This document shows, piece after piece, positions 4,658 to 22,530 of a stretch of 64,000 nucleotides of DNA. The DNA lies in the NCBI RefSeq assembly GCF_055900595.2, contig NZ_CM148325.1; one strand, given 5' to 3'. The notes under the pieces were generated by a model, which made no database searches, was not told where the DNA came from, and worked only from the letters and a program-made list of their open reading frames with translations. The position numbers and the translations under genes are program-made. Position 1 is the stretch's first letter. Each line of letters opens with the position of its first letter.

Positions 4658-4771
4658 GGGTGGGGGCCCTGCCAGCTACATCCCGGCACACGCGTCATCT
4701 GCCTTGGCTGCTTCCTTCCGGACCTGACCTGGTAAACAGAGTAGCGTTGCGGGAGAACCAACAGAGCCCCC
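4658..4771 (-). ncRNA. ffs: 4.5S RNA, the signal recognition particle RNA (114 nt)
   Basis: The plus-strand sequence gggtgggggccctgccagctacatcccggcacacgcgtcatctgccttggctgcttccttccggacctgacctggtaaacagagtagcgttgcgggagaaccaacagagccccc is the exact reverse complement of E. coli 4.5S RNA (GGGGGCUCUGUUGG...CCCCCACCC). Confidence 0.97.
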
Positions 4772-6966: not shown

Positions 6967-8253
6967 TTACGCGTTATAGGCATTTTCGCCGTGGCTGTTG
7001 ACGTCCAACCCTTCTCGCTCCTGTTCTTCCGGTACACGCAGACCAACCGTCAGATCCGCCAGTTTGTAGCCAATAAACGCCACCACACCGGACCAGACAA
7101 TCGTAATGGCAATGCTTTCCAGCTGTACCAGCAACTGATGGCCCATCGTCACACCTTCAGCGAAGCCCACTCCGCCCAGCGAACTGGCGGCAAAAATCCC
7201 AGTCATGATACAGCCGACAATGCCACAAACGCCGTGCACACCGAAGACATCACAGGGATCATCCACCCGCAGCAAGCGTTTGAGCATGGTAACGCCCCAC
7301 AAGCCCGCCAGACCAGCGACTACGCCGATAATCAACGCGCCGCCAACACCAATGTAGCCACAGGCTGGCGTCACGCCGACCAGACCGGCAATCGCGCCTG
7401 AACACGCTCCCAGCAGTGAAGGCTTACCACGCAGCGCCCATTCACCGAAGATCCAGCCAAGAATTGCCGCCGCAGTTGCGACCACAGTATTCACAAATGC
7501 CAGTGCTGCAATTTCATTCGCCGTGCCCGCTGACCCGGCATTAAAGCCAAACCAGCCGATATAGAGAATGGCAGTGCCGGTAAAGACCATCGGCAGGTTG
7601 TGCGGTTTAAACGCCTCTTTGCCGAAGCCCACGCGTTTACCAATTAGATATGCGCCCACCAGACCTGCAATAGCGGCGTTAATGTGCACCACCGTGCCAC
7701 CCGCAAAATCCAGCGCACCGTGAGAAGCCAGCAAACCGCCGCCCCAGACCATATGCGCAATCGGAATGTAAGAAAGCGTCAGCCACACCACCACGAAAAT
7801 CAGCACAGCTGAGAAGCGGATCCGTTCCGCCAGCGCCCCGACGATCAAGCCTACGGTAATGCAGGCAAACGATCCCTGAAACGCCACGTGGATATACTGA
7901 TAAATGCTGCCCATCACCGCCGTCAGTTCGATGTTTTTCAGCATCAACCAGTTAATGTTGCCAAAGAAGTTGTTGCCCTCACCAAACGCCAGCGAGTAAC
8001 CGTAAACCACCCAGAGAATACAGACCAGTGCAAACGTCACCGTCACCTGCGTCAGCATCGACAGCACGTTTTTGCCGCGAATTAACCCACCGTAAAACAG
8101 GGCAATACCCGGAATAGTCATAAACAGCACCAGCGCAGTACAAATCATCATAAACGCATTGTCAGCTTTATCGGCCACCGCAGGTGCAGCCATTACCAGT
8201 CCCGGCAGCATCGCCAGTGAAGCAAGCCCAGTTTTTATCGTCGCTATCTTCAT
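6967..8253 (-). CDS. amtB: Ammonium channel AmtB, 428 aa
   Basis: Complete ORF with signal peptide and multiple TM helices; directly downstream of glnK (glnK-amtB operon). Confidence 0.95.
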   Translation of the reverse strand: MKIATIKTGLASLAMLPGLVMAAPAVADKADNAFMMICTALVLFMTIPGIALFYGGLIRGKNVLSMLTQVTVTFALVCILWVVYGYSLAFGEGNNFFGNINWLMLKNIELTAVMGSIYQYIHVAFQGSFACITVGLIVGALAERIRFSAVLIFVVVWLTLSYIPIAHMVWGGGLLASHGALDFAGGTVVHINAAIAGLVGAYLIGKRVGFGKEAFKPHNLPMVFTGTAILYIGWFGFNAGSAGTANEIAALAFVNTVVATAAAILGWIFGEWALRGKPSLLGACSGAIAGLVGVTPACGYIGVGGALIIGVVAGLAGLWGVTMLKRLLRVDDPCDVFGVHGVCGIVGCIMTGIFAASSLGGVGFAEGVTMGHQLLVQLESIAITIVWSGVVAFIGYKLADLTVGLRVPEEQEREGLDVNSHGENAYNA

Positions 8254-8282
8254 TTTTCGTTCCTGTTGCTGTGTGCCAGAGA

Positions 8283-8621
8283 TTACAGCGCCGCTTCGTC
8301 GGCTTCGCCGGTACGAATACGAATGACGCGTTGCAATTCAGCGACGAAGATTTTGCCGTCGCCAATTTTTCCGGTGTAAGCCGCTTTGCTGACGATATCG
8401 ATCACTTCATCGAGTTGGTCATCAGCAATCGCCACATCAATTTTTACTTTTGGCAGAAAGTTGACGCTGTATTCCGCCCCCCGGTACAGCTCGGCATGCC
8501 CTTTCTGACGCCCGAAACCTTTCACTTCGGTGACGGTCAGGCCCTGAATACCAATGGAAGATAACGCTTCACGAACGTCTTCCAGCTTGAATGGTTTGAT
8601 TATCACGGTCACCAGCTTCAT
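8283..8621 (-). CDS. glnK: Nitrogen regulatory protein PII-2 GlnK, 112 aa
   Basis: Internal ATG at 8621 gives MKLVTVIIKPFKLEDVREALSSIGIQGLTVTEVKGFGRQKGH...; the upstream 46 codons of the tool ORF are non-coding. Confidence 0.93.
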   Translation of the reverse strand: MKLVTVIIKPFKLEDVREALSSIGIQGLTVTEVKGFGRQKGHAELYRGAEYSVNFLPKVKIDVAIADDQLDEVIDIVSKAAYTGKIGDGKIFVAELQRVIRIRTGEADEAAL

Positions 8622-8672
8622 AGATCCCCTCCGGTCAGAATTCGGTAATGGTTCTGCTACACGAATAAGGTA

Positions 8673-8689
8673 TTGCAAGCGGTGTGCCA
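8673..8689 (-). promoter_or_regulatory. sigma54 (RpoN) -24/-12 promoter of glnK-amtB
   Basis: Minus-strand sequence TGGCAC-ACCGC-TTGCA matches the sigma54 consensus TGGCAC-N5-TTGCW exactly, about 50 nt upstream of the glnK start. Confidence 0.8.
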
Positions 8690-8801
8690 GAAATGAAAAA
8701 CGAGAAAGAGAGCAGGAAGTTAAGAAGATTGAAAACAAAAACGCACTATGACAGTGCACAGTGCGTTACATTTTTGCACCAACGATGAAATATTGCGCTA
8801 T

Positions 8802-12348
<3,547 letters not shown>

Positions 12349-22343: not shown

Positions 22344-22426
22344 AGAGCTCTCTCTTAGTTTAATTTCCGCCAGGTAATCAGATGACACGACTGTGCTTCA
22401 CGCCATCTATTAACATGTACGTCAGT

Positions 22427-22453
22427 ATATGGGGATGTTTCCCCCACATTCAA
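22427..22453 (-). promoter_or_regulatory. sigma32 heat-shock promoter of lon
   Basis: Minus strand reads gcgTTGAATgtgggggaaacatCCCCATATact; matches the sigma32 -35 (CTTGAA) and -10 (CCCCATNT) elements with ~13 nt spacing, upstream of the lon start. Confidence 0.7.
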
Positions 22454-22468
22454 CGCCGAGAATAGAGG

Positions 22469-22505
22469 AAAAATTAAAGGGGAGATAAAATCCCCCCTTT
22501 TTGGT
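22469..22505 (-). terminator. Intrinsic terminator downstream of clpX
   Basis: Hairpin ggggag-ataaaa-tcccccc flanked by A/T runs on both sides, about 25 nt after the clpX stop. Confidence 0.65.
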
Positions 22506-22530
22506 TAACTAATTGTATGGGAATGGTTAA

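Follow-up and report, generated by a model that had tools for sequence, protein, structure and literature searches.

The glnK promoter of Escherichia coli, glnKp, was reportedly characterised in vitro by Atkinson et al. in 2002, and its late activation is said to have been ascribed there to an enhancer weaker than that of glnAp2. In strain K-12, sigma54 ChIP-seq peak OS03 (FAT 18) contains the motif CTGGCACACCGCTTGCA; its centre lies 61 nt upstream of the glnK ATG (position 8682 here), and transcription was predicted to start 42 nt from glnK (PMC4591121). The mdlB-glnK spacer was recovered by gSELEX with RpoN holoenzyme (61%) and also with NtrC (56%) (PMC8743547). ChIP-seq of NtrC in K-12 gave 39.7-fold enrichment at the glnK locus, and glnK mRNA is lost in an E. 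coli glnG deletion (PMC4066584). Activity of the orthologous glnK fragment from Salmonella requires rpoN and is switched on by DctD250 as well as by nitrogen limitation; it rises from 1.1 Miller units in rich nitrogen to 1778 when nitrogen is limiting (PMC3844500). The promoter has been described as relying exclusively on NtrC~P, and it has been proposed that glnK is switched on only after NtrC exceeds a threshold (PMC3870243). A first-pass annotation of the DNA studied here had expected nitrogen-regulated expression of glnK-amtB; the NtrC enrichment, the glnG-dependent mRNA and the Salmonella induction all agree with it.

Positions are those of the window, the whole 64,000-nt stretch of DNA analysed, and features are listed in Table 1. 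The region between mdlB and glnK is the already-known sigma54/NtrC control region of glnK-amtB, a textbook case. Mildly new are the cross-genus helical phasing of enhancer and promoter, and a predicted overlap of the enhancer with an mdlAB terminator.

The glnK locus and its sigma54 core promoter

The genes are ordered mdlB, glnK, amtB on the minus strand, and 29 nt separate glnK from amtB. NCBIfam models identified the ORF at 8621-8283 as GlnK (NF007946, 236.8 bits, cut-off 181); the same ORF scores under the cut-off of the GlnB model. The neighbouring products were identified as AmtB (NF007947, 880.5 bits) and MdlB/SmdB (NF008056, 1184 bits). All three identities match those annotated in RefSeq for E. 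coli sequences that are identical or nearly so, K-12 included, and the earlier naming of glnK was correct, with amtB downstream and mdlB upstream. A 301-nt query (8560-8860) matched 5423 of 5426 complete genomes, and sequence comparison shows positions 8622-8801 to be the E. coli intergenic region between mdlB and glnK.

Identity to the query is at least 99% in only 11 of the 5423 E. coli genomes and 95-99% in the remainder, which places the window in an uncommon lineage of E. coli. Strain Z0117EC0005, a dog isolate, is among the best matches to 8560-8860.

Table 1. Positions of genes, promoter elements, NtrC dyads and predicted RNA elements at the mdlB-glnK locus
Feature	Coordinates	Strand	Description and basis
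mdlB (smdB) stop codon TGA	8804-8802	minus	5' boundary of the intergenic region; ORF list
mdlB-glnK intergenic region	8801-8622	minus	180 nt
NtrC site I, candidate weak promoter-distal dyad	8778-8762	minus	TGCAAAAATGTAACGCA; centre 8770, about -107
Terminator-like element	8767-8730	minus	predicted; overlaps site II and the 3' end of site I
NtrC site II, candidate strong promoter-proximal dyad	8758-8742	minus	TGCACTGTCATAGTGCG; centre 8750, about -87
CT-rich enhancer-promoter spacer ('distal' CT tract of the published glnKp insulator)	8728-8701	minus	sequence; Levy et al., 10.1101/086108
sigma54 core promoter	8690-8674	minus	CTGGCACACCGCTTGCA; sequence, identity to K-12, ChIP-seq motif OS03
Proximal CT motif	8670-8662	minus	CCTTATTCG (K-12: CCTTCTTCG); -7 to +2; predicted anti-Shine-Dalgarno, in read-through RNA only
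Predicted +1	8663, within about 2 nt	minus	placed from the position of the -12 GC
glnK Shine-Dalgarno	8632-8626	minus	GGAGGGG, 4 nt before the ATG
glnK CDS	8621-8283	minus	PII-2 nitrogen regulator, 112 aa; ATG 8621-8619, stop 8285-8283
amtB CDS	8253-6967	minus	ammonium transporter, second gene of the operon

A 158-aa, GTG-initiated ORF (8283-8759, minus strand) was rejected both as a gene and as a longer form of GlnK. It is an in-frame upstream extension of glnK through its own promoter and enhancer, and an artefact of the ORF list. A search of 8200-9000 against Rfam with E-values up to 1 returned nothing relevant, only a spurious snoRNA match inside glnK. Elsewhere in the window, gathering-level Rfam matches were obtained to the bacterial small SRP RNA (ffs; 4667-4763, minus strand, 68.1 bits) and to the sRNA sraA (22415-22510, plus strand, 106.7 bits). 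The 10-mer TCTGGCACAC of the glnK promoter (8691-8682) is repeated directly after the glnK stop codon (8280-8271, minus strand), and this spacer copy has no -12 TTGC element (TGGCAC-N5-AACAG). Citrobacter and Superficieibacter retain the stretch CTGGCACACAG of the glnK-amtB spacer, which has decayed in genera further away; it is probably no more than a conserved leader of amtB.

The first-pass annotation had placed TGGCAC-N5-TTGCA on the minus strand about 50 nt upstream of glnK and had read it as a sigma54 promoter. The element is present, with TGGCAC at 8689-8684, the spacer ACCGC and TTGCA at 8678-8674, and 52 nt lie between TTGCA and the glnK ATG. In the pattern YTGGCAC-N5-TTGCW, CTGGCACACCGCTTGCA carries a GG doublet at 8688-8687 (-25/-24) and a GC doublet at 8676-8675 (-13/-12, with C8675 set as -12), exactly 10 bp apart. 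The exact TGGCAC-N5-TTGCA string occurs once in the 64-kb window, against a mean of 0.06 in shuffles (found in 6 of 100), and it is still the single match when one mismatch is allowed (2.3 expected). Its reading as a sigma54 promoter is upheld by identity to the K-12 site known from ChIP-seq (OS03) and gSELEX.

The predicted start leaves a predicted leader of 42 nt (8663-8622). Counting 19 bp downstream from the motif centre, PMC4591121 predicted a start at the same position, 42 nt from glnK. The leader of the sigma54 transcript is predicted to be unstructured (z +1.7). Around the Shine-Dalgarno (SD) sequence, GGAG(G/A)G(G/A)AT(C/T)TATG is conserved in alignment A2. This alignment holds 10 sequences: the window, K-12, E. 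albertii, two Citrobacter, Superficieibacter, three 'Enterobacter' and one 'Klebsiella' sp.

A wider set of 15 other Enterobacterales loci was taken from a GlnK scan with one genome per species, and mdlB lies directly upstream of glnK in 14 of them. All 15 carry YTGGCAY-N5-TTGCW 59-104 nt upstream of glnK. The core stands in sense orientation, close upstream of glnK, and is conserved at orthologous loci. A sigma70 promoter scan of 8100-9100 detected none, in keeping with the published account of glnKp as simple and reliant on NtrC~P alone (PMC3870243).

A -24/-12 match may also be a non-productive or chance sigma54 site, with glnK transcribed from elsewhere. Many E. coli sigma54 ChIP sites are intragenic and of unclear function, and the EcoCyc status of this promoter in 2015 was 'predicted', according to Bonocora et al. 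(PMC4591121). We consider a chance site very improbable at glnK. The match is correctly oriented, its predicted start lies 42 nt from the start codon, the core is kept in every Enterobacterales locus, and the region has no sigma70-like promoter. The rpoN and nitrogen dependence of the Salmonella fragment (PMC3844500) and the glnG dependence of E. coli glnK mRNA (PMC4066584) also argue against it.

NtrC dyads and enhancer-promoter geometry

Upstream of the core lie two candidate NtrC dyads. Compared with the 17-bp dyad consensus TGCACCA-N3-TGGTGCA, site I matches at 9 of 14 positions and site II at 10 of 14 (scored by script); the right half of site II is AGTGCG (8747-8742). Their centres are 20 bp apart, or about two helical turns, and lie on the same face of the DNA. 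The first-pass annotation had proposed NtrC half-sites at about 8745-8790 and had quoted two strings for them. That region does contain the dyads, and only the right half of site II runs past its 8745 limit. The strings need redrawing, as they straddle the two 17-bp dyads: tttttgcaccaacg (plus strand, 8771-8784) holds the left half of site I, and cagtgcacagtgcg (plus strand, 8752-8765) holds the right half of site I together with the left half of site II.

A search of the window for TGCACC-N5-GGTGCA with at most three mismatches gave 31 matches against 32.6 expected; 8742-8758 is among them, and site I is too degenerate to be recovered in this way. NtrC motif matches are thus at chance level, and sites I and II rest on conservation, spacing and published occupancy. 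The published NtrC ChIP-seq interval maps to window 8702-8622, where it covers the core promoter and not the dyads; occupancy is therefore given to the intergenic region and not to individual dyads or bases.

Conservation of the dyads is extensive. Alignment A2 contains an upstream conserved block, TGGTGCAAAAATGTAACGCACTnTGCACyGTCATrGTGCGTTTTT, equivalent to window 8781-8736. Within it the TGCAC...GTGCG arms of site II are invariant in all 10 aligned Enterobacteriaceae sequences, and the TGCA-N9-CGCA frame of site I is conserved. A homologous strong dyad is found in all 15 other Enterobacterales loci, with scores of 10-13 out of 14. The pair of dyads with 20-bp spacing also occurs in Citrobacter, Enterobacter, Yersinia, Rahnella and Acerihabitans. 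In the last three genera the strong dyad has the form (T/C)GCACT-N5-rGTGCG and is preceded, exactly 20 bp upstream, by a weak one; Photorhabdus has the strong dyad only. We infer that site II is the strong, high-affinity dyad and site I the weak one.

In several other Enterobacterales genera site I is itself preceded, at 42 bp, by a further NtrC-like dyad, the third, of the type TGCACCA-N3-TCAGGCG. It was seen upstream of glnK in loci L005 (2252-2268), L006, L007, L004, L010 and L013, and in the 'Enterobacter' spp. it begins at the mdlB stop codon. Escherichia is without it and has the shortest mdlB-glnK spacer, 180 nt vs 202-401 nt.

In A2, the dyads with their T-run form one conserved block and the sigma54 core a second, separated by a spacer of variable length. 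The distal CT tract lies in this spacer, and neither its sequence nor its length is conserved outside Escherichia. Geometry was measured from the centre of site II to the first T of TGGCAC. The distance is shortest in Escherichia (61 bp) and increases to 71 bp in Citrobacter, 92 bp in Superficieibacter, 104-105 bp in the 'Klebsiella' sp. and Photorhabdus, and 114-116 bp in the three 'Enterobacter' spp., Yersinia, Acerihabitans and Rahnella. The Enterobacterales distances fit 61 + n x ~10.6, with a Rayleigh R of 0.85-0.93 at a period of 10.5-11 bp. With each of the five distinct distance classes counted only once, 221 of 20000 random sets equal the phasing (p about 0.01). Phasing is weak in the non-Enterobacterales loci alone (R 0.49; equalled by 2445 of 20000 random sets).

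No IHF consensus site with at most one mismatch was found in 8622-8801, and an IHF-assisted loop was rejected on this ground. Judged from these spacings, helical phasing is the best literature-independent evidence here that the dyads and the core promoter cooperate. Phased spacing with no IHF site would be the behaviour expected of a short NtrC-sigma54 loop unassisted by another protein.

The segment is almost certainly the glnK-amtB control region of E. coli in its entirety, built as a simple enhancer-dependent sigma54 promoter. Sequence and comparison show here that the motifs are present and conserved, that the dyads are spaced by 20 bp and that helical phase is kept. Occupancy by sigma54 and NtrC, and dependence on glnG, rpoN and nitrogen limitation, come from published work on the identical sequence in K-12 or on its Salmonella orthologue. 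The exact start site and the looping geometry are what we infer from these.

In the proposed mechanism, sigma54-RNA polymerase would wait on CTGGCACACCGCTTGCA in a closed complex. When nitrogen becomes limiting, phosphorylated NtrC would occupy site II and the adjacent site I and oligomerise over both on one face of the DNA. A short DNA loop, phase-constrained in its length given that there is no IHF site, would then bring NtrC to the polymerase. ATP hydrolysis would open the promoter, with transcription starting near 8663, and the unstructured 42-nt leader would leave a strong ribosome-binding site exposed.

Predicted terminator and anti-Shine-Dalgarno elements

The DNA of the enhancer can also be read as RNA transcribed from mdlB. 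A hairpin at 8767-8740 has an 11-bp stem (AACGCACTGTG/CATAGTGCGTT) and is followed by the T-tract TTTGTTTTC (8739-8731). The terminator scan and folding gave it -14.4 to -15.9 kcal/mol (MFE -15.9, z -3.47). The stem-loop with its T-run TTTTTGTTTT lies on the same strand as mdlB, 35 nt after the stop codon, and has the sequence features of an intrinsic terminator. Every Enterobacteriaceae sequence sampled has an equivalent hairpin of -11 to -19 kcal/mol with a T-run, and GTGCG followed by four or more T residues is invariant in the 10 sequences of A2. Both Yersinia and both Photorhabdus sequences have the homologous dyad with no T-run after it, and in Y. artesiana and Photorhabdus cinerea the scan gives a separate terminator-like hairpin. 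On these folding predictions, the hairpin and T-run at 8767-8730 are likely the mdlAB terminator, overlapping the enhancer.

As an addition to the main explanation, 8767-8730 may have been selected at least equally as an intrinsic terminator of mdlAB, with the palindromic NtrC dyad serving as the stem and the invariant T-run as the U-tract. We give this an even chance. The stability of the 11-bp stem, the position of the T-run after mdlB, the invariance of GTGCG with its T residues and the hairpin present in each sequence favour it, as do the Yersinia and Photorhabdus dyads, which are without a T-run, and the separate hairpin predicted in Y. artesiana and P. cinerea. Among stem cells of the alignment, 93.9% are paired, and the only two-sided change is UA-to-CG. 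This covariation is probably one event and coincides with a change toward the NtrC consensus; it is compatible with the hairpin and not probative. The NtrC half-sites could by themselves explain conservation of the stem, and the T-run could serve DNA bending instead. Both mdlB and glnK are absent from the Term-seq and long-read supplements of PMC7815308, PMC6131387 and PMC12207403, which thus give no mdlB 3' end; mdlB expression may be too weak.

A second element concerns transcripts that pass this hairpin. When transcription reads through a 50-bp glnKp fragment, the reporter downstream is silenced, in an orientation-dependent and rpoN-independent manner. Mutagenesis in a synthetic context attributed the silencing to CT-rich anti-SD motifs, chiefly a 7-nt motif centred at -4 (Levy et al., 10.1101/086108). 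In the native leader the counterpart is CCUUCUUCG (-7 to +2), with CGGAGGGG as its predicted pairing partner. The window differs from K-12 by a C-to-A change at 8666 (-3), reading CCTTATT here vs CCTTCTT in K-12. The allele is rare: the exact 61-mer 8705-8645 with A at 8666 occurs in 15 of 4912 matching complete E. coli genomes. The change weakens the predicted helix between anti-SD and SD by about 3.9 kcal/mol.

Folding gave the SD an unpaired probability of 0.54-0.67 in the sigma54 transcript vs 0.01 (K-12 allele) and 0.12-0.13 (window allele) in read-through RNA. The SD is less accessible in read-through RNA in 14 of 16 sequences. Masking exceeded that by random genomic extensions in 299 of 300 cases for the K-12 allele and in 282 of 300 for the window allele. 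Composition-matched shuffles equalled it in 14 of 300 cases (K-12) and 52 of 300 (window allele, which beats 248 of 300).

The CT-rich motif at 8670-8662 might act natively as an anti-SD insulator, silencing glnK translation on transcripts that read through from mdlB. The published silencing maps to the 7-nt motif centred at -4, and the low SD accessibility of read-through RNA, the masking by the K-12 allele beyond nearly all random extensions and its recurrence among sequences point the same way. Native insulation nevertheless seems rather unlikely. The published constructs combined a synthetic ribosome-binding site with a reporter and did not have the native glnK context (10.1101/086108). 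The masking is marginal against composition-matched shuffles for both alleles, and longer RNA of any kind tends to pair more. A working upstream terminator would leave little read-through to insulate, and conservation of the distal CT tract does not extend beyond Escherichia.

Added to NtrC-dependent activation as the main explanation, these predictions would supply two unproven layers. The site II region, when transcribed from mdlB, would fold as an intrinsic terminator, and read-through RNA would carry a CT-rich anti-SD that masks the glnK ribosome-binding site. Together the two could hold glnK-amtB expression strictly NtrC-dependent. A broader proposal is that in Enterobacteriaceae the promoter-proximal dyad was co-opted as the stem of the mdlAB terminator, with the anti-SD as a backup and with indels tolerated only in whole helical turns; we hold this to be plausible, at somewhat less than even odds. 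If it is true, one 40-bp block is a protein-binding site in DNA and a terminator in RNA, an anti-SD overlapping the start site silences any read-through past the terminator, and Escherichia carries the shortest enhancer-promoter version, at 61 bp.

Comparison with known systems

The locus serves mainly as a positive control, in which an unaided read of raw sequence recovered a textbook sigma54/NtrC control region. The added value is modest. The dyads now have exact boundaries, NtrC motif matches taken by themselves prove no commoner than expected by chance, comparison across Enterobacterales supports helical phasing of the glnK enhancer and promoter, and the enhancer is predicted to double as a terminator for the operon upstream. 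None of these results alters how nitrogen regulation is understood.

The closest known system is K-12 glnKp (b0450-b0451), which is the same locus and is identical at 226 of 231 positions around the intergenic region. Its sigma54 17-mer, both of its dyads, and its hairpin stem, leader and SD do not differ from those of the window. Of the five substitutions, one is in the mdlB CDS, three fall within the T-tract or immediately behind it (TTTTTGTTTTCAAT in the window vs TTTTCATTTTCAAA in K-12), and one is the C-to-A change at 8666. The promoter is also the founding example of the sigma54-promoter insulator (Levy et al., 10.1101/086108). The window has the CT motif centred at -4; the insulator system is known from synthetic constructs only, and the window allele CCTTATT weakens its predicted helix.

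The glnK-amtB promoter of Salmonella Typhimurium (STM0462) has the orthologous sigma54 site TGGCACATCCTTTGCAAT. Its dependence on sigma54 and nitrogen limitation is experimental (PMC3844500), and spacer bases within its core differ from those in the window.

The glnAp2 promoter of glnALG is alike in that upstream NtrC~P dyads on the same face of the DNA activate a -24/-12 promoter by looping. Its NtrC sites are centred at -140 and -108 (PMC1865078), compared with about -107 and -87 for glnKp. Governor sites and an overlapping sigma70 promoter, glnAp1, are found at glnAp2 (PMC3870243, 10.1101/086108), whereas glnKp here has one good and one weak dyad and no sigma70 promoter. This layout fits the published proposal that glnK is activated only above an NtrC threshold (PMC3870243).
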